Part shown: piece after piece, positions 1,585 to 24,638 of the stretch | Layout of the letters: every line of letters begins with the position of its first letter | How positions within the stretch are numbered: the stretch's first letter is position 1 | Assembly (NCBI GenBank): GCA_965207455.1 | Contig: CBDBMJ010000003.1 | Span: 54,197-118,196 of the forward strand | Direction: 5' to 3' | DNA from: Bdellovibrionota bacterium | GTDB taxonomy: Bacteria; Bdellovibrionota; UBA1018; CAIPTA01; JAALKR01 | DNA length: 64,000 nucleotides | Translations under genes and position numbers: made by a program | Notes under the pieces: generated by a model | Told to the model about the DNA's origin: nothing | The model's database searches: none | What the model saw: only the letters and a program-made list of their open reading frames with translations

Positions 1585-2187
1585 TTAGTATGCTTCTTTA
1601 ATTTGCTTAAAGTAATAGCAATATTTTTCGTCAGTTTTAGTTGAACCGAGCCAAAAGGGAAGAAATGAATCATATTTAGCCAGAAAGTACTCTGTTTCTT
1701 TCTCTGATCCTCGCTCTACTACTACTATCTTTTTTAAGTGAACTTCAATATCTGTCATATCCAAAAAAATAGCATAGCTTAAAACAAGGCTGTTATTTTC
1801 CTCTTTTGCAGACACCGCACGCTTATTTATAAAGTTTGTCAACTGTTCTATACGCCCTTCACTTTCTTCCATAAAACTCTCATAATAGCCTAGCTTATTA
1901 GAGACTAAGGCTCCAAAGATGAGTTTATATTTATAACCGATGGTCTCAAGTCCAGCAAGTAGTGAAGGTATGGGAACTGCTGGGCGCTCAATATCAAAGC
2001 ATCGTCCACTTCTCCAACCAAGAGCGTCGCCATCCTTTGCTGGGCTTGCCTTCTCAAAAACCTCTTCCAGTTTGCTGTAGCTCGCATTATCCATTGGACC
2101 CACATCAGCTAATGACTCCTCACTCAGTACTCTAGCTACTGCTGGCACAGAAAATGCACATAAAAAAATCAGTATATAGTATTTCAT
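1585..2187 (-). CDS. Secreted hypothetical protein
   Basis: 200-aa ORF with signal peptide MKYYILIFLCAFSVPAVA; AT-rich upstream region with a 9-bp inverted repeat. Confidence 0.45.
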   Translation of the reverse strand: MKYYILIFLCAFSVPAVARVLSEESLADVGPMDNASYSKLEEVFEKASPAKDGDALGWRSGRCFDIERPAVPIPSLLAGLETIGYKYKLIFGALVSNKLGYYESFMEESEGRIEQLTNFINKRAVSAKEENNSLVLSYAIFLDMTDIEVHLKKIVVVERGSEKETEYFLAKYDSFLPFWLGSTKTDEKYCYYFKQIKEAY

Positions 2188-2348
2188 TTTTTTGCTCCTT
2201 TTTTTTATTGCACACTAAAATTGCAGTATATATTATTACATAATATATTTAAATAGTCAAGTATTATTTAGCCAAACGAGTTAAAACTGCAACTTATTGT
2301 TTTTATTAATTTAATTGAACAAGACAGGGGGAAAGACAGATTAAGAAC

Positions 2349-2711
2349 CTATTCGGATACAAAGGTACGCACTGCTATTCCACGAGCCGTAGTACGCAGG
2401 AAACCGTTTCGTACTTGAAATTGAATAATAGCATTGGCACCCAGTAGGGCAGCTTCCTCTTGCAGAGAGGCTTTTGCATCGTCGCCGTCGCCCCAAACCA
2501 TGGTACTTACGGAAGCGAGGCGCTTGTATTGAATGGCAAGGTCTGCTTGAGGAGACACAATAACGGATTCTGGCTCTGTGGGCTCATAAACCTTCGTTTG
2601 CTTGGGAATAAAAAAAGTGGAGTAGGAACAAGCCCCCAAAAATAAAAACGACAATAAAAGCGGCAATAAAAAAATCAACCCGTATGTTCTATTCACCATA
2701 TTGAACCGCAA
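2349..2711 (-). CDS. YbjQ/UPF0145-like (heavy-metal-binding-domain family) lipoprotein, tandem paralog 1
   Basis: Lipobox LFLGAC; C-terminal LQEEAALLGANAIIQFQV...GIAV resembles the YbjQ-family core. Confidence 0.5.
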   Translation of the reverse strand: MRFNMVNRTYGLIFLLPLLLSFLFLGACSYSTFFIPKQTKVYEPTEPESVIVSPQADLAIQYKRLASVSTMVWGDGDDAKASLQEEAALLGANAIIQFQVRNGFLRTTARGIAVRTFVSE

Positions 2712-3024
2712 TTCCTTTCACATGAAGCGTGGGAAAAATATCTAGGGAATAATCTATGGACACGTTTACCACGGCGTCAGCTCCCAATTCCGCAGCCTCT
2801 TCTTTCAACGCCTCTACTGCCCAAACTCCACTAGTACCCAAACGAACAGTGGATAAAATAGCAAATGGTCGCGACCTCACAGGGGGAGAACCTAAATATA
2901 TCATAACGTCTCTTGGTCTCTTAGGAACGGAGAAATCCTCGTCCACTAAAAAAACTGTGGTTGTGTTGGCACAACTTGTGCACATTATAGCAACAAAAAA
3001 TAAAAACCTAAAACGCATACGCAA
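2689..3024 (-). CDS. YbjQ/UPF0145-like lipoprotein, tandem paralog 2
   Basis: Lipobox IMCTSC; LKEEAAELGADAVVNVSIDY...GIAVQY matches the YbjQ-family signature (ERAAELGANAVVGVRFDY). Confidence 0.5.
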   Translation of the reverse strand: MRMRFRFLFFVAIMCTSCANTTTVFLVDEDFSVPKRPRDVMIYLGSPPVRSRPFAILSTVRLGTSGVWAVEALKEEAAELGADAVVNVSIDYSLDIFPTLHVKGIAVQYGE

Positions 3025-3751
3025 TCGCCAATCCTGGAAAACTTTCTAAAACAGTCTCGTGACTAATATACTCTATAATTAAAGACCAGCCCCTATAAAT
3101 TTTTGCTTCAATGCCACCTCCAATGATCATACCAGCCACACCTTCTTGCAATGTATCCATCCTAAGAGCAAACTCCCCCCCCAATAAAATAAAAGGAGAA
3201 ACCGACAAAGGAATCAAATGATAGGTGAGAAAAAAACTGCCCACAAACTTCTGCTCCTTCACCTTGGGGTGAAAAAATCGAGAACTGGCAGCAATACCCA
3301 TTCCCAAGCGATTGAAGTTATGGGTCATAAAAGCTCCCACACCAGGGGTGCGCCCCTCCCCACTAATGGCAAAAAGGTTGGAGCGATACCCTTTTCTACC
3401 TAAAACAGGATGACGATAGGCTTTATTGGGCTGCAAATCCTCTGCCAACTGTGCCTCCAGCTTTGTGAAATCAATATTTTCATCAGGCCTGTGGGTTCTT
3501 CTTTTCTTCAGAAGCGTGCCGTCGTCCAGATCTGAAGTGGAATCCAGCGGTTCTGAGTCTAAGCGTTCTTCTGGTGAACCGGGTGATGGGGCTTCATCTG
3601 TGGTTTCATCTCTAATGTCATCTGTAGCTTCATCTGTGGTTTTATCTGTGGCTTCTTCCCGTCCCAAGCCCTGAGCGAAAACCGTTCCAACCCCTAATCC
3701 AAGGTACAGGCACACCAAGCCAAAACCCATCCATTTTCCATAGAACTTCAT
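3008..3751 (-). CDS. Outer-membrane beta-barrel protein with acidic TDEATDD repeats
   Basis: Signal peptide; low-complexity acidic N-region; C-terminal alternating hydrophobics ending ...LAIAYAF (terminal Phe, typical OMP signature). Contains a C8/G8 homopolymer. Confidence 0.5.
   Translation of the reverse strand: MKFYGKWMGFGLVCLYLGLGVGTVFAQGLGREEATDKTTDEATDDIRDETTDEAPSPGSPEERLDSEPLDSTSDLDDGTLLKKRRTHRPDENIDFTKLEAQLAEDLQPNKAYRHPVLGRKGYRSNLFAISGEGRTPGVGAFMTHNFNRLGMGIAASSRFFHPKVKEQKFVGSFFLTYHLIPLSVSPFILLGGEFALRMDTLQEGVAGMIIGGGIEAKIYRGWSLIIEYISHETVLESFPGLAIAYAF
3175..3182. repeat. Homopolymeric C8 (G8 on coding strand) tract inside OMP gene
   Basis: Counted across the line break: cccccc + cc. 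Encodes LGGEF. Confidence 0.8.
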
Positions 3752-4246
3752 ATATGTTTAGGTTAACAGAAATAGAAAAAATATTTATAGAAAAGGGCTG
3801 TTCCTGCTAGGCAGTCAATTCATTAAAGAGCTGGCTGCCATAACAAGGAATTTATATAGGGTCAGCGAAGAGCTCGTTTTTTCTTCGTAAATACTGTAAT
3901 ATCGCCAACGTTTACACAACCGTAAGTAACTTCCAATGTCCATCTATCCCGAGAACTATTTTGACTATGGAAAAAGTTTTTATTTTCTAGACGCTCCCAC
4001 TCTGAAAAAAAGAACTCAATCCCTTTGTCCTGAAAAGCGAAATGGACAAAAAACTAGACCAGCTTTTTTTATTATTGCAGCAGTCTAAGAATGGAAAAGC
4101 GGCATGATTTCAACGCGATGCTCCTTGGTGCGTTTTCATTATGAGTCAATACGAGGCTTTCCACAATCGGCTAAATTATCATCTTTTTTCATTCGGGGGT
4201 GTTTCCATGGTGCTATTCAGAGTATGAATAGAGAAAAAGGAAAAAA

Positions 4247-5581
4247 ATGGACAAAATTTCCACAAGTCCTCTTTCAGGATTTCGAGACTTTCTACCTCAG
4301 GAAAGTGCTGCTCGCGCTTGGGCACTGGATACTATTGCAAAGGCCTATGGTGCTTATGGCTTTCAGCCCATCATAACTCCCAGTTGTGAGCGTTTGGCGA
4401 CCCTTCAGGGAAAGGGTGCTGGTCAGGAGAATGAGCATCTTATTTTTAAATTACAAAAGCGGGGGAGGTCGTTGGAAAAGGCTTTTACCCAGGCGACGCC
4501 TGAAAATTTAGACACTCTCAGCGACATGGGCTTGCGCTTTGATCTCACGCTCTTACTAGCGCGCTATTATGCCCATTTTCAGCTTCCTCAGCCCTTCAAG
4601 GTGTTTCAGTGCGGGCCTGTTTGGCGTGCCGAGCGTCCACAAAAGGGAAGGTATAGGGAGTTTTTTCAATGCGACGTGGATGTTCTCGGAAGCGCCTCCA
4701 TAGGAGCAGAGGTGGATTGTTTGCAAGCGATTGCTCTGGCCATGCACCAGATGGGTATTGGCAAGGTGGAATTTCATCTCAATGATCGACGTCTTTTGGA
4801 TGCCTTGGGCACAAATCTGGGTATTCCTCCTGATCAGTGGACGGGTGTACTGGTAACAATGGATAAGTTGGACAAGATAGGAATCGACGGTGTGACCCAG
4901 GAGTTGGGGAAAAAAATACCGAAGCCAGAAAAAATTATTAGCGCCTTTACTGGTCGCAAGACTTTAAGGGAATGGAGTGAAATTGCCCCCACAGCGGTTG
5001 ACAGTCTTGGGGAGATTTTTGCCTGCTTGGAGCCGACTCTAACTGAAAAGGATCAGTCCCTTCACTTTTCTCCCACTCTGGTGCGTGGGCAGAATTATTA
5101 TACGGGAACGATTTTTGAAATTCGCAAGCCTTCCCTAGGTTACTCCCTTGGCGGTGGTGGGCGCTATGATCGACTGCTGGAGTTGTTTGACGTTCCTTCC
5201 ACACCGGCGTTTGGCGGCAGTATTGGTTTTGAGAGGATAATCCCCCTTTTGTTGGAGAGCAAAGACAAACCTTTCGTGCTTCCCACGCCCCAAGTTTTCT
5301 TTCCTCTCTTTTCCTCAGGCCTCTATGGAAAGGTGAACGATTTGGCAGAAAAATTGCGCAAAAAGGATATAAGCGTAGATGTATTTCCCGATGCCGTGAA
5401 GCTCAAGCGACAGTTTCGGTATGCAGAGGCACGGGATATTCCCTATGTGGCTAGTATTGGTGAGAGTGAGTTAGACCAGGGGACAGTTACATGTAAGAAT
5501 ATGAAGACAGGCAAGGAAGAAACAATGGATGAAAGTGCATTTATTATAGAAATGGAAAAAAAATGTCGAAACAACCGTTAG
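4247..5581 (+). CDS. hisS: Histidine--tRNA ligase
   Basis: N-terminal GFRDFLPQE motif and class II motif VWRAERPQKGRYREFFQCD; 444 aa. Confidence 0.9.
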   Translation: MDKISTSPLSGFRDFLPQESAARAWALDTIAKAYGAYGFQPIITPSCERLATLQGKGAGQENEHLIFKLQKRGRSLEKAFTQATPENLDTLSDMGLRFDLTLLLARYYAHFQLPQPFKVFQCGPVWRAERPQKGRYREFFQCDVDVLGSASIGAEVDCLQAIALAMHQMGIGKVEFHLNDRRLLDALGTNLGIPPDQWTGVLVTMDKLDKIGIDGVTQELGKKIPKPEKIISAFTGRKTLREWSEIAPTAVDSLGEIFACLEPTLTEKDQSLHFSPTLVRGQNYYTGTIFEIRKPSLGYSLGGGGRYDRLLELFDVPSTPAFGGSIGFERIIPLLLESKDKPFVLPTPQVFFPLFSSGLYGKVNDLAEKLRKKDISVDVFPDAVKLKRQFRYAEARDIPYVASIGESELDQGTVTCKNMKTGKEETMDESAFIIEMEKKCRNNR

Positions 5582-7365
5582 TATACCGAACCCATACCTG
5601 TGGAGAGCTTTCTTTAGATCAAAACAAAGAAAAAGTGATCCTTAGTGGGTGGGTGGATACCCAACGAAACCATGGTGGGCTGATATTTATCGACCTTAGG
5701 GATCGTTACGGTATTACCCAATTGGTCTTTGATCCGGATCAGGGAAAAGAGTTGATGGATCAGGCCGGCAGGGTTCGTAGTGAGTATGTATTGCGAGTGG
5801 TGGGGATGGTACGCAATCGACCTGAAAATATGGTGAATACAAAGATTTCCACGGGTTCGGTGGAAGTGCTTGCTCAGGAGATCACTGTGCTGTCTGCGGC
5901 AAAAACGCCTCCTTTTGTTATTGAGGATAAGGCAAATGTTAGTGAGGATATTCGTTTGGAGTTTCGGTATTTGGATCTTCGTCGTCCATTTCTACAAAAG
6001 ATTCTTCAACTCAAGCACCGTTTTGTCCAGGGTATGCGTAACTACCTTACGGAAAAAGATTTCCTAGAGATAGACACTCCTATTTTATTTAAAAGCACTC
6101 CTGAAGGGGCAAGGGATTATTTGGTGCCGTCCAGGAATTCACAGGGATCTTTTTATGCCCTACCACAGTCTCCCCAGACCCTAAAGCAGCTTCTGATGAT
6201 CGGTGGGTTGGATCGTTATTTTCAATTTGCCCATTGTTTTCGAGATGAAGATTTGCGTTCGGACCGTCAGCCGGAGTTTGTCCAGTTGGATTTAGAAATG
6301 TCCTTTGTCAATGAGGAGTCCATCTATGCCTTAGTGGAGGGATTGATGACAGCAGCCTATAAGGAGGCTTCCAATAGTAAGCTCACCCCACCGTTTCCAC
6401 GGCTGACGTATAAAACTGCCATGGAGAAATATGGGAATGACAAGCCAGACACTCGTTTTGACTTATTGTTAGAGAACGCCAGTGCTGTGTTTGAAAAGAC
6501 AGCATTCAAGGCATTCTCTTCGGTGTTAGGGGCTGGTGGTAGTATTAAGGGTTTATGTGTAAAGGCTGGCACCGATCTTTCCCGCAAGAATATTGACAAT
6601 CTCACTTCTCTTGTGGCTCGATTTGGAGCCAAGGGTTTAGCTTGGCTAAAAGTAGAGGAGTCTTTAGTTTCTCCCATTGCAAAGTTTCTATCCTCGCAGG
6701 AGCAAAGTGCTTTAGTGAAATGTATGAAAGCAGAAAAAGGGGATTTAATTCTTTTAGTGGCAGACATTGATCCTGAGGTAGTGGATGCATCTTTGGGTAA
6801 CCTACGGGTCCATCTGGGGAAAGAGCGAAATCTAATTAAGGACAATTGTTTTAACTTTCTTTGGGTCACTGACTTTCCTCTTTTTGAATACGACTCTGAA
6901 ACAAAAACCTATTCAGCCAAGCACCACCCTTTCACTCAGCCCCATCCCGACGATATAGAGTTATTGAAAAATCAAAAAAATATGGGGGAGATACGTTCCG
7001 TGGCCTATGATCTTGTTTGTAATGGTCATGAAATTGCTGGTGGTAGTTTGCGTATTTACCAATCGGATGTGCAGGAGGCCATGTTCCGAGCCTTGAATGT
7101 AACGAAAAAAGAAGTGGAAGAAAAATTTGGTTTTTTCATACGTGCCCTACAGTACGGAACTCCTCCCCATGGCGGTATTGCCTTTGGTCTTGACCGAAAT
7201 ATCATGTTATTGACGGGAGTGAAATCCATTCGAGATGTTATTGCCTTTCCCAAGACTCAGACGGGAGCTTGTTTGATGAGTTCTTGTCCCGACCCGGTAA
7301 CAGATAAACAACTGCGAGAATTATCTATTCGGGTGAGTAAAGAGGATCGTCCCACCCCAAAATAA
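5563..7365 (+). CDS. aspS: Aspartate--tRNA ligase
   Basis: 600 aa. N-terminal OB-fold RTHTCGELSLDQNKEKVILSGWVDTQRNHGGLIFIDLRDRYGITQ and class II core FRDEDLRSDRQPEF. Overlaps hisS by 19 nt. Confidence 0.9.
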   Translation: MSKQPLVYRTHTCGELSLDQNKEKVILSGWVDTQRNHGGLIFIDLRDRYGITQLVFDPDQGKELMDQAGRVRSEYVLRVVGMVRNRPENMVNTKISTGSVEVLAQEITVLSAAKTPPFVIEDKANVSEDIRLEFRYLDLRRPFLQKILQLKHRFVQGMRNYLTEKDFLEIDTPILFKSTPEGARDYLVPSRNSQGSFYALPQSPQTLKQLLMIGGLDRYFQFAHCFRDEDLRSDRQPEFVQLDLEMSFVNEESIYALVEGLMTAAYKEASNSKLTPPFPRLTYKTAMEKYGNDKPDTRFDLLLENASAVFEKTAFKAFSSVLGAGGSIKGLCVKAGTDLSRKNIDNLTSLVARFGAKGLAWLKVEESLVSPIAKFLSSQEQSALVKCMKAEKGDLILLVADIDPEVVDASLGNLRVHLGKERNLIKDNCFNFLWVTDFPLFEYDSETKTYSAKHHPFTQPHPDDIELLKNQKNMGEIRSVAYDLVCNGHEIAGGSLRIYQSDVQEAMFRALNVTKKEVEEKFGFFIRALQYGTPPHGGIAFGLDRNIMLLTGVKSIRDVIAFPKTQTGACLMSSCPDPVTDKQLRELSIRVSKEDRPTPK

Positions 7366-14391: not shown

Positions 14392-14597
14392 GGTCCCAGG
14401 TCCGTGAGCATTTCCACCCCACCCACATCCGTTAGGTACACATGACCCGCGGGGCACACATGCTGTTCCACTTTTCTGGAAACATCATCGGGACGAATCC
14501 CACGAATCACAGGTATTGAGGAAAAATTGGTCTTACAGATGGGACAATCCAATGCTCGTTCCAAGGGATGCTTGGGTAGGGAATGTGCTTTTGTCAT
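14388..14597 (-). CDS. Small zinc-ribbon-like hypothetical protein (CPICK...CPAGH)
   Basis: 69-aa ORF with CxxC...C...H spacing; downstream of the paralog pair on the same strand. Confidence 0.35.
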   Translation of the reverse strand: MTKAHSLPKHPLERALDCPICKTNFSSIPVIRGIRPDDVSRKVEQHVCPAGHVYLTDVGGVEMLTDLGP

Positions 14598-14707
14598 GCC
14601 ATTACCATAACATTAATTATATATATTTAAAAGCATCACTTATTTAAATATTTGAGAAACAAAAAAGCCCTCTCTATTTCTAAAGAAGGCTTTTCTATTA
14701 AGAAGAT

Positions 14708-14804
14708 TTTGTAATAAATTAAAATTTATGTATTTAAATTTTTTGGTTAGCTGCCGGTTGCATTTTTTGATGAGCAATCATCAGCATCAGTTGATGCGAA
14801 AGGC
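14708..14804. repeat. 97-bp direct repeat copy 1 (3' end of CDS + 3' UTR)
   Basis: Identical to 15524..15620 at the nucleotide level. Confidence 0.85.
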
Positions 14805-15502
14805 TCTTTATAGCTCATGCCTCGTTCTTTGAGGCTGGTGTAGTCGTCATTTCTTTTCAATTCAGTACAGAGGTTATTTAACTTCTGTACTTGTTTCGCT
14901 AACCTTTTAGCTTCTGCTTCCGCTTCTTGAGCTTCAGTTATTGCTTCTTCAACTTCTTTTTCTCCAATCAAATTTTTAAATCTTTTTTCCTTGATTACAA
15001 GCGCCAGCTCAGACTCTACTCTTGTACTTACTTGAGAACCTATTTCATCTTCTATATTCGTCTTATATCTATCAAGCAGATCAGCGCCAAAACCCTTAGT
15101 ATATCCAGAAAAAATACAAGTAAATATACCTTCTTTAAGTAATTTATAATTAGTCAAGAGAACATCTGATCTAGTCGAGACTCCACGGAGTATAAATCTT
15201 GAAATTATACTTGGCTCTTCTGTTGCCTCACATCTAGAATAATTTTCAGAGATATAAGTTGCGATATGAGACTTTAGCTTTTCCCTGATCACAGTATCTG
15301 TGGAAGAAATAGTTTTTTGATATTCCGCTGTCTTACTTTCCGCATCTCTAACTCTCTCTTTTGCACGTATGAATTTCTCCTCAGCAGAAACAGGTTTCAC
15401 CGATGAATCATCACTCTCAGGATTCAGCGCATGTCCAATTGTTGGTGATGCTATGGAAAGCGCTATTGCTGTTATCATTACTATATTTTTTGTTTTTATC
15501 AT
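14747..15502 (-). CDS. Secreted coiled-coil protein, paralog A (conserved C-terminal ...PFASTDADDCSSKNATGS)
   Basis: Signal peptide MIKTKNIVMITAIALSIASPTIGHA. Clear homology to 15563..16240. Last 19 codons and 3' UTR identical to paralog B. Confidence 0.6.
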   Translation of the reverse strand: MIKTKNIVMITAIALSIASPTIGHALNPESDDSSVKPVSAEEKFIRAKERVRDAESKTAEYQKTISSTDTVIREKLKSHIATYISENYSRCEATEEPSIISRFILRGVSTRSDVLLTNYKLLKEGIFTCIFSGYTKGFGADLLDRYKTNIEDEIGSQVSTRVESELALVIKEKRFKNLIGEKEVEEAITEAQEAEAEAKRLAKQVQKLNNLCTELKRNDDYTSLKERGMSYKEPFASTDADDCSSKNATGS

Positions 15503-15523
15503 TTTTTTATCCTCAGGGAGTAG

Positions 15524-15620
15524 TTTGTAATAAATTAAAATTTATGTATTTAAATTTTTTGGTTAGCTGCCGGTTGCATTTTTTGATGAGCAATCATCAG
15601 CATCAGTTGATGCGAAAGGC
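15524..15620. repeat. 97-bp direct repeat copy 2
   Basis: Identical to 14708..14804. Confidence 0.85.
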
Positions 15621-16240
15621 ACTTTATAGTCTAGACGTTGATCTAGGATAATAGCGATGTCATCTCTTATTGCTCTATCAAGGAGGTTCTCTAATTTTAG
15701 AAGTTGCATAGCCAATTGAATAGCTTTTTCTTCTGCATATGCAAATTTTCTTTCTGCATCTAGATCTTCTTCCGCACTTATAGCATCGTTTATATCCTTT
15801 TTTTCAGCTTCTACTTTTGTACTTACTTGAAGCTCTATTTCATCACCCAGCATTTCAAAATACGTTTTATTTATACTACCTTTAGTAAATCCATGAAAAA
15901 TGCATCTCGATATTCCTATTTCGATTCCTTCATTACGATCAACTGGTATGCTTCTATTGTTCAAATAACGATAGTCCGCACCCATTATCCGAATATCGTT
16001 TATTTCTTCTTCCTTGCACCTAGTATAATTTTTAGAAATATAAGATGAGAGATGAGACTTTATTTCTTTATTTTTAGAATCAAGTTCCACTTGATATTCC
16101 ACAATCACTTCATTTAAAACCGCGGTCCTCTGCTTAGAGTTCTTTGACAAATCATCATCAGAATATCCAATTGTTGGTAAGGCTATGGCAAGTACCATTG
16201 CTGTTATCGCTATTATATTTTTATTGCTTGTTTTCATCAT
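15563..16240 (-). CDS. Secreted coiled-coil protein, paralog B
   Basis: Signal peptide MMKTSNKNIIAITAMVLAIALPTIGYS; shared YTRC...CIFHGFTKG core and identical C-terminus. Confidence 0.6.
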   Translation of the reverse strand: MMKTSNKNIIAITAMVLAIALPTIGYSDDDLSKNSKQRTAVLNEVIVEYQVELDSKNKEIKSHLSSYISKNYTRCKEEEINDIRIMGADYRYLNNRSIPVDRNEGIEIGISRCIFHGFTKGSINKTYFEMLGDEIELQVSTKVEAEKKDINDAISAEEDLDAERKFAYAEEKAIQLAMQLLKLENLLDRAIRDDIAIILDQRLDYKVPFASTDADDCSSKNATGS

Positions 16241-16449
16241 TATTCTTATCTCCTTTATTCATGTTAGTTATATTTGTTAATGCAAGGGACGTGCCAGAAT
16301 AGCTTTAAAAGGGTATAATTTAAAAAAGCTTTATTTTCAGTCGCTTAGCCGTTAATCTTATGCCTGCTGATACAAAGGCTACAAGAAATCAAGCCCTGGA
16401 TTGACTAAAAAATAAACAATGTCGAGGAATTTTACAGTAACCAGTAAAT

Positions 16450-19860: not shown

Positions 19861-20796
19861 ATGAAGTGGAAATTTCCTCCAGCTTTAGCGTCGGATCAAG
19901 CAATCGGGGTGGTGGCACCCTCGAGCTTTGTGGATAATACATTCTTGCAATCAGGGCAAAAAAAATGCAGTCAGCTGGGCTTAAAACTCCACTATGACGA
20001 ATCCATATTGCAGAAAAAATTGTTCTTCGCAGGCGAAGACTCTCAAAGGGCAGAGAATTTTATTGCTGCCCATACTAGCGAGACCAATAATATGCTTTGG
20101 TGTGCACGAGGAGGCTACGGGGCTGCTCGTATTCTTCCCCTATTGGAGGAAAAAAAATTCCATACAACACTCCAAGAAAATCCAAAACTCCTTATTGGTT
20201 ACTCGGACTCCACAGCTCTCTTTACCTATTACCTACAAAGGGGAGGAGTTTCCTGTTTACACGCTCCCTTAATGGCAGCTCCCAGTTGGTTAGATACGAC
20301 AGAAAAAGATTCTACCGACTTTCTCAATATCCTTCATGGAACCACAGGTCTGGGCAAAGCCTCCCATACCGCAAAATGGAATACCCTTTTTTTAGGAAAC
20401 CGTGGGACAGCTGAAGGAATTCTCATGGGAGGAAATATTAGCGTGCTATGTTCTTTAGTGGGTACGCCTTGGCAGCCCAAGTTTCAAGGAGGGATTGTGC
20501 TACTGGAAGATTGTAACGAACCCCCTTACCGGCTTCACCGTATGCTTACCCAATTGGATCAGGCCGGTTGTTTCGACGGAATACGAGGAGTAATTCTCGG
20601 CGACTGCACCCACGGAGTGCCCAAAGGCACTACCTGGGAAACGGTCTTTTCCGACATACTCGTTCCCAAATGTCTCGTGCTTCATGGTGCTCCCGTGGGA
20701 CACAGCAAGCGCAACAGCCCTCTCCCACTAGGGGTGCGAGCTAGAATCAACTCCCAAGGAAAACTGGAGTTATTGGAGCAGGTGGTAGGGCTCTAG
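19861..20796 (+). CDS. ldcA: LD-carboxypeptidase (S66 family)
   Basis: VVAPSS...LW...GG...LIGYSDSTAL nucleophile-elbow region; 311 aa. Confidence 0.75.
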   Translation: MKWKFPPALASDQAIGVVAPSSFVDNTFLQSGQKKCSQLGLKLHYDESILQKKLFFAGEDSQRAENFIAAHTSETNNMLWCARGGYGAARILPLLEEKKFHTTLQENPKLLIGYSDSTALFTYYLQRGGVSCLHAPLMAAPSWLDTTEKDSTDFLNILHGTTGLGKASHTAKWNTLFLGNRGTAEGILMGGNISVLCSLVGTPWQPKFQGGIVLLEDCNEPPYRLHRMLTQLDQAGCFDGIRGVILGDCTHGVPKGTTWETVFSDILVPKCLVLHGAPVGHSKRNSPLPLGVRARINSQGKLELLEQVVGL

Positions 20797-20806
20797 GATT
20801 ATTAAG
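20760..20806. repeat. Imperfect ~45-bp direct repeat, left copy (covers last 12 codons of ldcA)
   Basis: aaaactggagttattgg[agcaggtg]gtagggctctaggattatta versus 22216..22256 aaaactggagttattgg[g]ggtaggactctaggattatta. Confidence 0.75.
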
Positions 20807-21431
20807 AGACCCAAAATTTCTGTAATTCATCAATAAAGCTCTGGTAAGCCTCTTCAAAGCTAGGTGCTTCTTTGATTCCTGAAACAGCACTTGACCAACC
20901 GATCTTCAGAAGGCTCAAATCTATGGTTTTTAAATGCTGGATAAGATCTTTAGGAATAACTGTTTCTCGATAATTGAAACAAGCTTCAAGAGAACGAAAT
21001 AAATTGTTTTTTTCAGCTCTTGGAAGAAAGTAGGATAAGTCAAATATATCCTTTGAGCGTGAATTGTACTTTCCAAGATCCACTAGTGCATGAATTTTTT
21101 CTGCAATCATTGTTTCTATAGGATAAACAAACCAAGTCAGTTCATTTTCTCCAATCAGCTCTGGTGTTTTAATTTGAAGAGGAGAAGGAACAATAGGATC
21201 ACCAATTCCTAGGTCAAATTGAATAATCTGGAACTTTTTTATATTTTTAGGTATCTCGCCAATCCCAGCACGAAATACTTGTCGAACTCCACCATACTCG
21301 CCCTGAGTTTTAAGATCTATTTCTTTTTCAAACCTAAACCAAACAGCATCATTAAAAGTTTTTTCTACGACTACCTTAACAGCATCAAGATCAATTGTAT
21401 ACCTGCTGGATTTATAAATACGTAGTCCCAC
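20802..21431 (-). CDS. abiEii: AbiEii/DUF1814 nucleotidyltransferase toxin (type IV TA / abortive infection); N-terminus ambiguous
   Basis: IETMIAEKIHALVDLGKYNSRSKDIFDL matches the AbiEii signature. First canonical start is GTG at 21431, but the in-frame upstream 33 codons encode ...LVFKGGYVGL (the conserved GG nucleotide-binding motif) with no ATG/GTG/TTG; in-frame stop at 21531. Confidence 0.6.
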   Translation of the reverse strand: MGLRIYKSSRYTIDLDAVKVVVEKTFNDAVWFRFEKEIDLKTQGEYGGVRQVFRAGIGEIPKNIKKFQIIQFDLGIGDPIVPSPLQIKTPELIGENELTWFVYPIETMIAEKIHALVDLGKYNSRSKDIFDLSYFLPRAEKNNLFRSLEACFNYRETVIPKDLIQHLKTIDLSLLKIGWSSAVSGIKEAPSFEEAYQSFIDELQKFWVS

Positions 21432-21557
21432 ATAGCCACCCTTGAAAACAAGAGATTTGTAGAGTGTTGCATTTGATGTAATTCTGACAACTAAGATTAT
21501 TTTTTTTAGCCCAATTTGAAAGCTTCTGTTTTATCGAGATGCTCTGATTCTTTATAC

Positions 21558-22124
21558 TCATAAAATGATGGCCTCCCAATATTTATCAAAGGTTTTTTTT
21601 AGGTTTAGTGCAGTTGCCATTTTTCCAAGTTTCGTTTCTGTAGTAAGGTCATCTTTAAGAGCACGTCTTGTTGCATTTATCGCAATTCTAAGACCGAGTT
21701 TCGTTGCAAATTTTAGTGATTCAATAAGTGTGCGCTCAATATTTGTGATTTTAAAGCATCCTCGATCTTCGATTCCTTTAGTAAAAGGTGTGCTTGTTCT
21801 AAGACATTTATATTTTTTGCGTTCATTTTTTTTTGCTTGAGGTACGATAAGCCAAACTTGCTGAGGAGCCTGATCAATGAGTCCGTAATGAAAAAGAGCA
21901 GAGAGCCCACTTACGGCAGCATCTGGTCCAAAATACTTGTATGCCATAGCAAAATCCAGCTCTTCTGGATCAATGGAAGACTTTGGATGCATATAAAGAC
22001 CACGATCAATTCGTAGGAGCTTTTCCTGCTTCACCCACCTTGAAAGCGTGTGTCGCCCAATGCCCGCGCTGCTTTGAGCTTCTTTCGCATTGAATATTCC
22101 AAGTTTTTTTAGTTTGCTAGGCAT
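21558..22124 (-). CDS. abiEi: AbiEi antitoxin / transcriptional regulator
   Basis: N-terminal wHTH LGIFNAKEAQSSAGIGRHTLSRWVKQEKLLRIDRGLY typical of AbiEi_4; 188 aa; directly upstream of abiEii. Confidence 0.65.
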   Translation of the reverse strand: MPSKLKKLGIFNAKEAQSSAGIGRHTLSRWVKQEKLLRIDRGLYMHPKSSIDPEELDFAMAYKYFGPDAAVSGLSALFHYGLIDQAPQQVWLIVPQAKKNERKKYKCLRTSTPFTKGIEDRGCFKITNIERTLIESLKFATKLGLRIAINATRRALKDDLTTETKLGKMATALNLKKTFDKYWEAIIL

Positions 22125-22136
22125 CTTATTCTATTA

Positions 22137-22182
22137 TGCACCAAATCCGACATTTTTCAACAAAAATGTCGGATTTGGTGCA
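22137..22182. promoter_or_regulatory. Perfect 21-bp inverted repeat with 4-nt loop, 13 nt upstream of abiEi start (candidate AbiEi operator and/or terminator of upstream lipoprotein gene)
   Basis: tgcaccaaatccgacattttt-caac-aaaaatgtcggatttggtgca; arms are exact reverse complements. Confidence 0.55.
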
Positions 22183-22215
22183 TATACGATAGCAGCCATG
22201 GAGCATAAGTACCTA

Positions 22216-22256
22216 AAAACTGGAGTTATTGGGGGTAGGACTCTAGGATTATTAGG
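22216..22256. repeat. Imperfect direct repeat, right copy (ldcA-tail remnant overlapping lipoprotein stop)
   Basis: See left copy 20760..20806. Confidence 0.75.
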
Positions 22257-23004
22257 GTAGGGGCCACAAGCGAAACACGCTTTCTGTTTTCGATATCCAC
22301 TCCCCCCGTTCAAAGGGTGTTTTCACGGTATAAGGTGATTTAGCAAAACGGAAAAGCAGGGGCGGGTAGGTTTTATCTTCTTTTTGCCACTGGGGATTTT
22401 GTCTTCCTTTTGCGTGACGAAAGTTTAAGAAGTCGAAGTGTATGTACACCTCCTTTGTGTTTCCAGAGGCAAGAACTCGCCCATCTGGAGTAAGTCGCTT
22501 GGAGTAATCTATTGACGGCAGGCCCATTCGATTCATGGTAATTTCGTCTTTAATCTGAGTATATTCACAGAGATTTATATTTTCTTTTTGGGTAATATGA
22601 ACACGTCCGTGGCTCACGCCCCCATCCTTTCGTCGACCAAATACTTCAAAAGATTTTCTATTACTCAGTTTCTTTCCCTCCTTTCCCCAAAGTTCGTAAA
22701 GAAAAACCATGGACTCTTCTGGAAATAAACCGCAAGAAGGAATTTTATATACTTTCAGAAGTTTCCTGCCACCAAGGAAGCTTACTTCTATTTTCTCTTC
22801 TGTATGGCGCTCGTCGGTTGCAGCTAGGCTATCGCTTAAGGTATTTAGAGTGCCCTTCCAAGTGCCCTCTAGTTTTTCAAAAGAGAAGCTCTTCCAACTT
22901 TGGTTCATTTTGGTACACTCAAAGCATAAAGAATTTAGTCTTTGCCCCGCACAGCCACTCAAAAATAAACCCAATACGCCAATAGAAAAAAGTAAACGCA
23001 CCAT
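22252..23004 (-). CDS. Lipoprotein of unknown function
   Basis: Lipobox LFLSGCAG; 250 aa; no family recognised; sits between the AbiE and HipBA modules. Confidence 0.5.
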   Translation of the reverse strand: MVRLLFSIGVLGLFLSGCAGQRLNSLCFECTKMNQSWKSFSFEKLEGTWKGTLNTLSDSLAATDERHTEEKIEVSFLGGRKLLKVYKIPSCGLFPEESMVFLYELWGKEGKKLSNRKSFEVFGRRKDGGVSHGRVHITQKENINLCEYTQIKDEITMNRMGLPSIDYSKRLTPDGRVLASGNTKEVYIHFDFLNFRHAKGRQNPQWQKEDKTYPPLLFRFAKSPYTVKTPFERGEWISKTESVFRLWPLP

Positions 23005-23092: not shown

Positions 23093-24313
23093 TCATGAAT
23101 ACATTTTTTTTGCTTTTTTTAACTCTGCATGTTCGAACGCTGAGGCCATGCGATCGATTTCTTTTTTACTTAAGCCAAATTGTTGGGCAATATCGCGCCA
23201 GCTAGAAACAGCCGTTGCCACCTGCTTCACAATCTTATACGCTTGATTTTTTTCTAGTCTAAATTCGTCAATAACAGATAGAGCTGTATCAATAGAGGCT
23301 GTTGAGTCATTGAAGCTAATTGAAGTTGAAAGGATACGGTCCTTTATGTCGATGGGATTTGGGTTTATATCGTAAGCAGGTGAGAGGCGCCAGCCTTTAT
23401 GTCGTTCATATAAAAAACCATGGTTTCGCAAATGATCGTCGGTATTAGAAATAAGTACGGTGAAGACAATCCTGCGCCAAAGTTCTGCCATATCTTGATC
23501 GGGTTTTTCACCATACTGTATAAGGGCATGGGCGATCTCAAGATAGCTGCGCCTATCATTATCTTTTGCACCAAGCATACTCATGGCAGAGAGGAATGGA
23601 ATGCGTTTATTACCTATTCGATCAAAGCGCTGTATAATGAGAACAGGTTTTTTCTGGATATTTTCTAAGCGCACTTCAGGGATCTGTAGACCAGCTTTTT
23701 GTGCCAGTTTAAGAGCCACAGCTTCCCATACAACAACATTATATTCATCATCTTTTTTAGGAAATTTAGCAATAGCGAGACGACCATTTTTATCATACAC
23801 AGATACCTTTGGTCTTGCACCACCAAGAGAAGAGCCTGGAGCAAGAAGTATTTTTAAATCATCCTCTGTTTCATTATCATTTAAGAAATTCTCGGAGGCA
23901 GACAAAAGCCTTGGTAAATCAATAAGTGGTGGAATGCTTGTTCTGTTTTTTCGAGTTAAGTATGGTCCTTGGGATTGCAGGGAAAAGCGCAGCGCGCCCT
24001 GACGTGATTCATCGTTGACGGCAAGGAGATAATCTATTTCTAAAAGAGGTTTCATGGCTTGCCCTTTCCTTTTTGCACGCATACTTTCAAAGCGCTGAAT
24101 GAGAATATGTCCCCAGCGATCTGGAGCAGAGTCTCCAATTGCGCCAAATAAAGCCTGACCGGGGCATGTATAAAAAGCACCCTCGGTGAGTTGCAAGGCC
24201 GGATCAATGGCAAATCTTTCGCGATTCTTGCGCTGGTGACACCATAATTTACCCACTTGCTGGCGCTCATCACCAAGTTGGATAGAAACATAAATTTGCT
24301 TACTATTTGCCAT
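23093..24313 (-). CDS. hipA: HipA-family Ser/Thr kinase toxin (type II TA)
   Basis: N-terminal couple_hipA-like domain (IYVSIQLGDERQQVGKLW) and HipA_C kinase core; start taken at MANSKQ (24313), overlapping the hipB stop by 11 nt. Confidence 0.75.
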   Translation of the reverse strand: MANSKQIYVSIQLGDERQQVGKLWCHQRKNRERFAIDPALQLTEGAFYTCPGQALFGAIGDSAPDRWGHILIQRFESMRAKRKGQAMKPLLEIDYLLAVNDESRQGALRFSLQSQGPYLTRKNRTSIPPLIDLPRLLSASENFLNDNETEDDLKILLAPGSSLGGARPKVSVYDKNGRLAIAKFPKKDDEYNVVVWEAVALKLAQKAGLQIPEVRLENIQKKPVLIIQRFDRIGNKRIPFLSAMSMLGAKDNDRRSYLEIAHALIQYGEKPDQDMAELWRRIVFTVLISNTDDHLRNHGFLYERHKGWRLSPAYDINPNPIDIKDRILSTSISFNDSTASIDTALSVIDEFRLEKNQAYKIVKQVATAVSSWRDIAQQFGLSKKEIDRMASAFEHAELKKAKKMYS

Positions 24314-24638
24314 TGTTCTCTCGATTGATCCGAGGAAACCGAATGCGTTTTGGCAGGTTTTCTGTTTCCAGATCCAGTCCAATAATATCGCGGTGTGGGC
24401 CGGCTATATTCTGCAAGTGATCAGTCATGCCTAGTACGAATAGAGCACAGGCATATGATCCCATTGAAACAGAGGGCTCACCTCTTTCAATTTTGCCTAA
24501 AGTTATAACTGAAAAGCCTGCACGTTCAGCCATAATTTTTGTGGGGATACGCCGTCGTCGTCGAGCGACAGAGATATTTTCACCAAGCTCACGCATGGCT
24601 CTTTTTGCAGGAATGGGTAATCGTGGTTTACGTTTCAT
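24303..24638 (-). CDS. hipB: HipB-like XRE-family HTH antitoxin
   Basis: HTH ISVARRRRRIPTKIMAERAGFSVITLGKIERGE; 111 aa; translationally coupled to hipA. Confidence 0.7.
   Translation of the reverse strand: MKRKPRLPIPAKRAMRELGENISVARRRRRIPTKIMAERAGFSVITLGKIERGEPSVSMGSYACALFVLGMTDHLQNIAGPHRDIIGLDLETENLPKRIRFPRINRENNGK

Follow-up and report, generated by a model that had tools for sequence, protein, structure and literature searches.

A decayed AbiE toxin-antitoxin operon between direct repeats of the ldcA 3' end in a Bdellovibrionota bacterium: a probable horizontal insertion with long duplication of its target

Background

How does a two-gene operon that carries no recombinase come to lie between two chromosomal genes, bounded on either side by a copy of the end of one of them? 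The question is raised by a segment of a 64,000-nucleotide (nt) stretch of DNA, hereafter the window, from a Bdellovibrionota bacterium (assembly GCA_965207455.1, contig CBDBMJ010000003.1), in which an abiEi-abiEii pair of the AbiE family (type IV toxin-antitoxin/abortive-infection) separates an ldcA-like gene from a convergent lipoprotein gene. The segment had been described, in an initial annotation made from the sequence, as a small accessory module that integrated at this junction and duplicated its target. We consider it probable that an AbiE operon was acquired horizontally and was inserted here with a long target duplication, the insertion with its duplicated target being the well-supported part of this reading. 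Taken alone, the locus is a toxin-antitoxin insertion of an ordinary kind that is decaying and has no evident host effect; its interest is that it would represent an unusually clean, rarely documented footprint of the entry of a cassette without a recombinase of its own.

The insertion and its duplicated target

The features on which the analysis rests are as follows (coordinates are those of the window; aa, amino acids).

19861..20796, plus strand: ldcA-like LD-carboxypeptidase gene, 311 aa; the target gene, with its 3' end duplicated
20760..20804: copy 1 of the direct repeat, 45 nt; it takes in 11 complete ldcA codons with 1 further nt, the TAG stop and 8 nt GATTATTA
20805..22215, minus strand: insert of 1,411 nt, equal to the AbiE operon alone plus promoter and putative operator; low in guanine plus cytosine (GC) and a tetranucleotide outlier
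20802..21561, minus strand: abiEii toxin pseudogene, with its ATG at 21561 and two deletions, as judged from translations and from protein and DNA alignments
21558..22124, minus strand: abiEi antitoxin/autorepressor gene, 188 aa, apparently intact (Pfam, PADLOC and alignment with homologues)
22135-22157 and 22162-22184: arms of a perfect palindrome, a putative AbiEi operator; 23-nt arms, 4-nt spacer, 100% complementary
22133..22160, minus strand: sigma-70-like promoter inside the palindrome, TTGAAA, 16 nt, CATAAT; a consensus match only (10/12)
22216..22254: direct repeat copy 2, 39 nt; apparently a non-coding relic of the ldcA end, its last 3 nt being the lipoprotein stop
22252..23004, minus strand: convergent lipoprotein gene, 250 aa, with the lipobox LSGC by inspection; the right-hand neighbour at the ancestral junction

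Copy 1 of the repeat (20760-20804) reads AAAACTGGAGTTATTGGAGCAGGTGGTAGGGCTCTAGGATTATTA, and copy 2 (22216-22254), aligned to it, reads AAAACTGGAGTTATTGG------GGGTAGGACTCTAGGATTATTA. The heads of the two copies are identical at 17 of 17 positions (20760-20776 and 22216-22232) and the 24-nt tails (20781-20804 and 22231-22254) are 92% identical, the copies differing by a 6-nt in-frame indel (two codons) and two substitutions. Local alignment of both flanks of the insert gave a score of 26.5 (z = 16.7 against shuffles), and none of 100 shuffled sequences contained two matches to the repeat. Within the 64-kb window neither half of the repeat has any further copy, so it is not dispersed there. An imperfect direct repeat of about 45 bp is thus present where the initial annotation had placed it, with the two substitutions that it listed and with copy 2 overlapping the stop of the convergent lipoprotein gene as it had described. 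The 8-nt indel that it gave is in fact one of 6 nt, the start-to-start spacing being 1456 for the head and 1450 for the tail, and the part of ldcA that it counted as the last 12 codons plus the stop does lie at the end of the gene, at the extent given in the list above. The terminal TTA serves as the stop of abiEii in copy 1 (20802-20804) and as the stop of the lipoprotein gene in copy 2 (22252-22254).

The product of ldcA matches Pfam Peptidase_S66 (8e-26) and Peptidase_S66C (5e-31), and scores 163 bits against the NCBIfam muramoyltetrapeptide carboxypeptidase model, under the equivalog cutoff of that model. Pfam and PADLOC uphold the identities that had been proposed for this gene and for the AbiE pair (Peptidase_S66 N- and C-terminal domains, AbiEii, and AbiEi_4/AbiEi). 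Copy 1 encodes KLELLEQVVGL*, the conserved end of LdcA, and copy 2 would read KLELLGVGL*. The motif L..LEQ at the LdcA C-terminus is invariant in nine homologues; since LEQ is kept in copy 1 and EQ is lost from copy 2, the latter would be an unselected relic of the duplicated target. These comparisons support a derivation of the repeat from the target, that is, from the end of ldcA, and not from the inserted element. We also considered copy 2 as a functional alternative end of ldcA, given its in-frame indel and one synonymous change, and rejected this possibility since copy 2 is without the invariant EQ.

The composition of the segment and the gene order of a related genome point in the same direction. 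The GC content of 20805-22215 is 0.369, compared with a window mean of 0.429 (-2.4 standard deviations, SD) and a value of 0.443 for the flanks. In tetranucleotide distance it lies at +2.3 SD, with just one other region of the window being more atypical; the low GC content reported earlier is thereby confirmed, and the composition is atypical. In the closest available relative (L006, GCA_011087705.1; LdcA 50% and lipoprotein 44% identical), the order is E1alpha, E1beta, ldcA and a convergent lipoprotein homologue, with the two stops 6 bp apart and a single ldcA end, ...GGAAAACTGGAACTACTGGAACAAGTC... (...GKLELLEQV...), at the junction. With one ldcA end and no cassette, this junction looks as the initial annotation had expected of an empty site, at the level of gene order and homologous gene ends and not base for base. 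Removal of the insert and of one repeat copy from the window leaves a 5-bp spacer between the two genes. Two further loci (L007 and L096) keep the ldcA/lipoprotein neighbourhood with one extra gene in between; the lipoprotein, for which no Pfam or NCBIfam family matched, is 44%, 43% and 37% identical to genes beside or near ldcA in L006, L007 and L096, respectively. No closer LdcA relative was found in a search of 5.8 billion proteins, where the next LdcA is only 50% identical, and an LdcA search of genome contigs returned only Desulfobacterota-type matches of 31-36% identity. Taken together, the L006 gene order, the non-dispersed and target-derived repeat and the foreign composition support the earlier view that a small accessory module would have integrated at the ldcA/lipoprotein junction and duplicated its target.

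One might ask whether the repeat is independent of the insertion, as a local duplication or a chance match, or whether the contig is a chimera joined via shared k-mers, since the source is a metagenome-assembled genome and the contig of a sibling cassette (L077, see below) ends exactly at its repeat. However, the repeat lies at both exact ends of a compositionally foreign segment and was reproduced in none of the 100 shuffles, its copies differ and would therefore not collapse in an assembly graph, and the footprint recurs in independent assemblies (L094, L074 and L077, which are three replicates, as well as L016, L050 and L051). An artefact or coincidence of this kind is in our view very improbable.

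The AbiE cargo

Judged from its sequence, the cargo is a decayed AbiE operon of the ordinary kind. The abiEi product matches Pfam AbiEi_4 (1.9e-08) and, weakly, AbiEi_1; it aligns with the PADLOC AbiEi profile (6.5e-29) over residues 6-186 of 188 and profile positions 15-194 of 198, and is collinear with its homologues to the last residue at 57-62% identity. Its stop overlaps the start of abiEii as ATGA (21558-21561) in a bicistronic arrangement with the antitoxin first.

Two lesions were called in abiEii by comparison with intact homologues of 275-284 aa (57-65% identical) and with the DNA of the L010 and L009 cassettes, namely, the loss of 41 nt between 21485 and 21484, which shifts the frame, and the in-frame loss of 39 nt (13 codons) between 21378 and 21377, just past the TIDLD motif (motif II). 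The longest open reading frame (ORF) left (20802-21431, 209 aa) starts past the glycines of nucleotidyltransferase motif I, and the remnant matches Pfam AbiEii (7.7e-16) only over profile positions 48-236 and PADLOC only over 92-266 of 294. A homopolymer slip in a run of eight A was considered as the cause of the frameshift and rejected, as the DNA alignment identifies a 41-nt deletion instead. Because of the frameshifting deletion, the second deletion and the severed motif I, we regard abiEii as a pseudogene; the families assigned to the abiEii-abiEi pair in the initial annotation stand, but abiEii is not intact. In Streptococcus agalactiae AbiEii, residue G49 of motif I is essential for toxicity (PMC3985639). 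Toxicity of the present abiEii is not expected given these lesions, and the locus, now a decaying module, would make at most an autorepressed orphan antitoxin.

Located 10 nt upstream of abiEi, the palindrome overlaps the -35/-10 match. It had been described as perfect and 21 bp long; it is perfect, with arms of 23 nt and a 4-nt spacer. A recognisable, imperfect form of it is found upstream of abiEi in the nearest cassette (L010), and a different palindrome of 17 nt occupies the same position in L009. As AbiEi of S. agalactiae binds two 23-bp inverted repeats, separated by 3 bp, and thereby represses its own promoter (PMC3985639, PMC7319586), we propose the palindrome as a putative AbiEi operator for autorepression. 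At the other end of the operon, no terminator-like site was predicted between the ends of abiEii and ldcA (20796-20826). Transcription from the abiE promoter would presumably run antisense into ldcA unless repressed by AbiEi.

The cassette as a discrete unit

We scanned metagenomes with an AbiEii alignment, which yielded 79 loci, and compared these all against all with blastn. Many independent pairs of loci share only about 1.46-1.50 kb at 82-88% DNA identity, with unrelated flanks. The block that they have in common begins about 30-60 nt upstream of abiEi and ends at the abiEii stop. Its length in four pairs is as follows.

L040/L094: 1,498 nt
L050/L094: 1,478 nt
L040/L050: 1,477 nt
L035/L041: 1,462 nt

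An alignment of the window insert with the L010 cassette extends from 20813 to 22178, which falls short of the repeat boundaries by 8 nt and 37 nt. Adding back the two deletions gives a length of 1,411 + 41 + 39 = 1,491 nt, which matches the 1.46-1.50-kb unit. Since the restored insert equals the shared cassette unit, it appears that the bare operon alone entered the junction. A blastn comparison of the cassette DNA with plasmids gave no match.

Toxin-side decay is seen elsewhere in the clade too. The abiEii gene of L050 falls into two ORFs (1045-1887), and L087, L088 and L090 have the flank and abiEi in common with L041 and L059 and only about 360 nt of abiEii left (match 3001-3219 and others).

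Flanking repeats around sibling cassettes

For the 36 loci with enough sequence (about 34 of them non-redundant), the flank upstream of abiEi was aligned to the flank downstream of abiEii. Long flanking direct repeats of 46-132 nt, each different, were found in 4 of the about 34 sibling cassettes, or in roughly one in eight related cassettes. The repeats are listed below.

L016: 46-nt repeat; the downstream copy is the last 16 nt of a transfer RNA gene (tRNA-Asp) plus 31 nt
L050: 48-57-nt repeat
L051: repeat of about 86 nt
L077/L094: repeat of 108/132 nt with about 85% identity, of which one copy extends over the final 34 nt of proC

These repeat-flanked loci scored 27 or more, and none of 381 control pairs scored at least 18 (327 sliding window pairs of the same geometry, taken from the window and from unrelated loci, and 54 off-cassette pairs in AbiE loci). 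The L050 and L094 cassettes are 84% identical to each other, yet their repeats are unrelated. As the repeats differ in sequence and length even between these two related cassettes, they derive from the targets and not from the element. Where the target can be identified (ldcA, proC and tRNA-Asp), the cassette has its abiEii side towards the intact gene end, although three cases are too few for significance. Neither terminal inverted repeats nor a common motif was seen at the inner boundaries of the five repeat-flanked cassettes.

Three further candidates were set aside. A weak 25-nt flanking repeat in L010 (19/25) was not counted, being indistinguishable from chance in AT-rich DNA. A 235-nt "repeat" in L014 is not a target duplication, as it is a second, internally deleted copy of the cassette in tandem. 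We also looked for an empty site of L094 through relatives of its proC; the best of these on a long contig, L092 (89% identical in protein and 76% in DNA), is uninformative, since its downstream gene is divIVA and it has no recognisable repeat.

The imperfection of these repeats bears on a second alternative, in which a circle excised from a related genome, and carrying one ldcA end, would have recombined through RecA with the resident ldcA end in the manner of Campbell integration, leaving two non-identical copies. Such an event would explain why imperfect repeats surround sibling cassettes that look intact, and why the repeats are always host-gene sequence; moreover, repeat-flanked restriction-modification cassettes amplify through their repeats (PMC2853133), and L014 has tandem cassette copies. 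On the other hand, the longest perfect identity in the window repeat is 17 nt and its total length 39-45 nt, which makes it a poor substrate for RecA; copy 2, without the invariant EQ, is not a functional allele of the ldcA end; no close relative with a cassette at ldcA is known; and the first duplication would merely be shifted to an earlier host. We therefore give this scenario little credence for the present locus.

Several of the sibling loci have features of their own. L016 harbors a 2.55-kb integrase-less segment (2135-4782) with abiEi, abiEii, an 86-aa ORF and a 107-aa HTH_3 protein; its tRNA-Asp lies at 4767-4843, and a Fic/Doc gene lies just beyond the upstream repeat copy. Genes of the Fic/Doc family occur upstream of the AbiE cassette in L010 (537-1502), L016 (1214-2011) and L051 (38-664), a co-occurrence that may reflect small toxin-antitoxin or defence islets. 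In L094, the same locus as L077 and L074, repeats at 1503-1610 and 3509-3640, which differ by one 25-nt indel, enclose an intact AbiE cassette convergent to proC. Its replicate assembly, L077, breaks off exactly within the repeat and has a third repeat variant and a 74-nt difference, which suggests more than one haplotype in the population. L014 (510-6587) resembles a toxin-antitoxin hotspot, with a full AbiE cassette, the tandem deleted copy, a third AbiEii fragment (5974-6414) and a Panacea-domain antitoxin-like gene, between outer direct repeats at 510-542 and 6413-6445 (94%) and at 778-911 and 6458-6587 (81%).

Search for mobility functions

No integrase, transposase or resolvase domain was found by Pfam in 42 proteins of the window, which include 40 of its 66 ORFs of at least 150 aa and cover both sides of the insert. 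The scanned proteins are housekeeping proteins (CoA/pantothenate, PDH-E1-like, pst-phoU-phoRB, flagellar, folD and gcvT), a hipBA pair, or proteins without a family match. The insert itself contains no recombinase, excisionase or transfer-gene remnant and nothing beyond the AbiE operon, and there are no inverted repeats at its ends. The absence of an integrase claimed by the initial annotation was thus borne out among the proteins scanned. Scans of the window for tRNA genes and for Rfam families found nothing, and the site is therefore not a tRNA or transfer-messenger RNA attachment site. Two classes of element were considered and rejected: a DNA transposon or miniature inverted-repeat transposable element, as terminal inverted repeats are absent and the duplication is 39-45 nt compared with under about 15 bp expected, and an integron gene cassette, as the abiEii stop lies inside the direct repeat, no palindrome (attC) is adjacent and the operon carries its own promoter.

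A repeat containing a gene or tRNA 3' end is the classical signature of the attachment (att) sites of tyrosine integrases, and this raises a third alternative. The insert could be the remnant of a decayed island, comparable to a cis-mobilizable element (CIME), or a mini-element mobilised in trans, with the repeats as attL and attR of a tyrosine integrase that targets the ldcA 3' end; CIMEs are decayed integrative elements that keep attL and attR and have lost their integrase and transfer genes (Guedon et al. 2017, PMC5704250). Three kinds of evidence agree with such an origin. The repeat covers the 3' end of a gene which is restored by the integration, as in many integrative elements, and the 46-nt repeat of L016 with its tRNA-Asp 3' end fits att sites at least as well as a target duplication. 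The sibling repeats are 83-91% identical, as expected if the arms of attP and attB differ. Fic/Doc and other toxin-antitoxin genes beside several sibling cassettes suggest accretion at hotspots. However, the insert is the bare cassette to within 8 nt and 37 nt, and the decay of an island to exactly that unit would be a coincidence; no remnant of an integrase, excisionase or transfer gene is left in the insert, and no recombinase domain occurs in the 42 window proteins scanned; and the 84% identical L050 and L094 cassettes with unrelated repeats of different lengths are unlike the products of one attachment specificity. An origin as a CIME-like remnant or trans-mobilised mini-element therefore seems unlikely to us, and a target duplication upon entry of the bare operon is preferred.

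Neighbouring regions of the window

Two other regions of the window resemble insertions. Just past the lipoprotein gene, at 23093-24638 on the minus strand, lie a gene for a HipA-like kinase toxin (Pfam HipA_C, 4e-50) and an overlapping upstream helix-turn-helix (hipB-like) gene, at a position where L006 has a different gene of 956 aa on the plus strand. This hipBA pair appears to be a further toxin-antitoxin insertion close to the first, and no direct repeat flanks it. The most atypical stretch of the window lies at about 14400-16400, with a GC content of 0.34-0.36 and the largest tetranucleotide distance; its ORFs at 14747-15502 and 15563-16240 (minus strand) have no match in Pfam, NCBIfam or PADLOC, and it may be another foreign insertion.

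A model of the insertion

The preferred reading can be laid out as a series of events. An operon of about 1.49 kb, comprising the promoter with its 23+4+23-nt operator, abiEi and abiEii, would have arrived horizontally as a bare cassette and entered the region of the 5-bp gap between the tail-to-tail ldcA and lipoprotein genes. About 45 bp of the target, from the end of ldcA through the lipoprotein stop, would have been duplicated in the process, allowing both host genes to keep intact 3' ends; we infer that the target strands were cut tens of bases from each other, that the incoming DNA was attached to them and that the gaps were then filled in. The copy joined to ldcA would have stayed under selection, and the other copy would have drifted by a 6-nt deletion and two substitutions. 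Later, the toxin would have been inactivated by the 41-nt frameshifting and 39-nt deletions, with the antitoxin/repressor and the operator remaining intact.

There is a precedent for such an event in restriction-modification cassettes, for which target duplications of 46-47 bp and longer have been described without mobility genes and with one repeat copy where the site is empty (Furuta, Abe & Kobayashi 2010, PMC2853133). These authors suggested that DNA breakage by the cargo itself might drive the event (PMC2853133); since cargo-driven DNA breakage cannot apply to an AbiE cassette, a host process would be implied here. No paper that applies long target duplication to toxin-antitoxin cassettes was found in a full-text search of an incomplete literature collection. 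Long target duplication for restriction-modification cassettes is reportedly also described in a paper of 2000 (Gene 259:99).

Besides the gene-restoring position of the repeat and the L016 case noted above, several points weigh against this account. The target duplication was inferred without a base-for-base comparison, the nearest LdcA being 50% identical and no conspecific empty site being available. An integrase acting in trans could sit outside the 64-kb window, which is part of a contig of at least 504 kb, or among the 26 unscanned ORFs, mostly of 150-240 aa, which is the size of small serine recombinases. About 30 of the 34 sibling cassettes are without a flanking repeat, and where a repeat is present the copies are only 83-91% identical though the cassettes look intact; given that intactness, imperfect repeats are explained more easily by different alleles, of the att or Campbell type, than by decay.

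A wider generalisation can be put forward only tentatively: the AbiE cassettes of this clade, and perhaps toxin-antitoxin operons generally, might be discrete mobile units of 1.5 kb that enter by a host-driven, recombinase-free process, preferably where genes and tRNAs have their 3' ends and in convergent orientation, with target duplications of 39-132 bp. If this were true, the process would be independent of any cutting of DNA by the cargo and would leave the same footprint as the restriction-modification cassettes of the Kobayashi group, and it would provide a first concrete handle on the integration of stand-alone toxin-antitoxin modules, whose mechanism of entry is acknowledged in a recent review as not elucidated. 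If general, it would amount to a common, cargo-independent route for selfish two-gene modules, for which a cassette and its repeat offer defined test substrates.

Comparison with known systems

The operon resembles the AbiE systems of Streptococcus agalactiae and Lactococcus (Dy et al. 2014, PMC3985639; Beck et al. 2020, PMC7319586) in its bicistronic abiEi-abiEii order, in its COG5340/AbiEi antitoxin, with an N-terminal winged helix-turn-helix and a C-terminal antitoxicity domain, in the DUF1814 nucleotidyltransferase domain of the toxin, and in a promoter embedded in paired 23-nt inverted repeats that are 3-4 nt apart. It differs from them in that its toxin gene is a pseudogene, with motif I cut off by the frameshift and 13 codons gone past motif II, and in its host, an uncultured Bdellovibrionota-like bacterium according to the source names of the best LdcA matches.

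Like CIMEs, the insert is an integrase-less segment between direct repeats containing the target gene's 3' end. It differs from them in showing no island remnant and consisting of exactly one operon, related cassettes being found at other sites with unrelated repeats; among the window proteins searched, no cognate integrase-bearing element is known for the ldcA site. Stand-alone toxin-antitoxin operons such as ccdO157 lie between housekeeping genes, variably decayed and without a mobile element, according to accounts of a 2009 study in later papers (PMC3184786, PMC7167474). The present locus is likewise a lone small toxin-antitoxin operon, and differs from ccdO157 in that a long target duplication seems to be preserved at both of its ends.

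The closest parallel is offered by the restriction-modification cassettes with long target duplications. In both cases a small addictive module without a mobility gene lies between chromosomal genes, flanked by direct repeats longer than 30 bp (here 45 and 39 nt) that are not found elsewhere (here, in the 64-kb window) and vary in length from case to case. In the terms used by Furuta et al., the insert is shorter than 20 kb and comprises a complete addiction module (1,411 nt with promoter, abiEi and abiEii), without mobility genes among the proteins scanned and with a repeat that occurs only twice in 64 kb. It differs from the restriction-modification cases in that its cargo is a type IV toxin-antitoxin system, in that an empty site is seen only in the distant relative L006, and in that the repeat spans two convergent stop codons.

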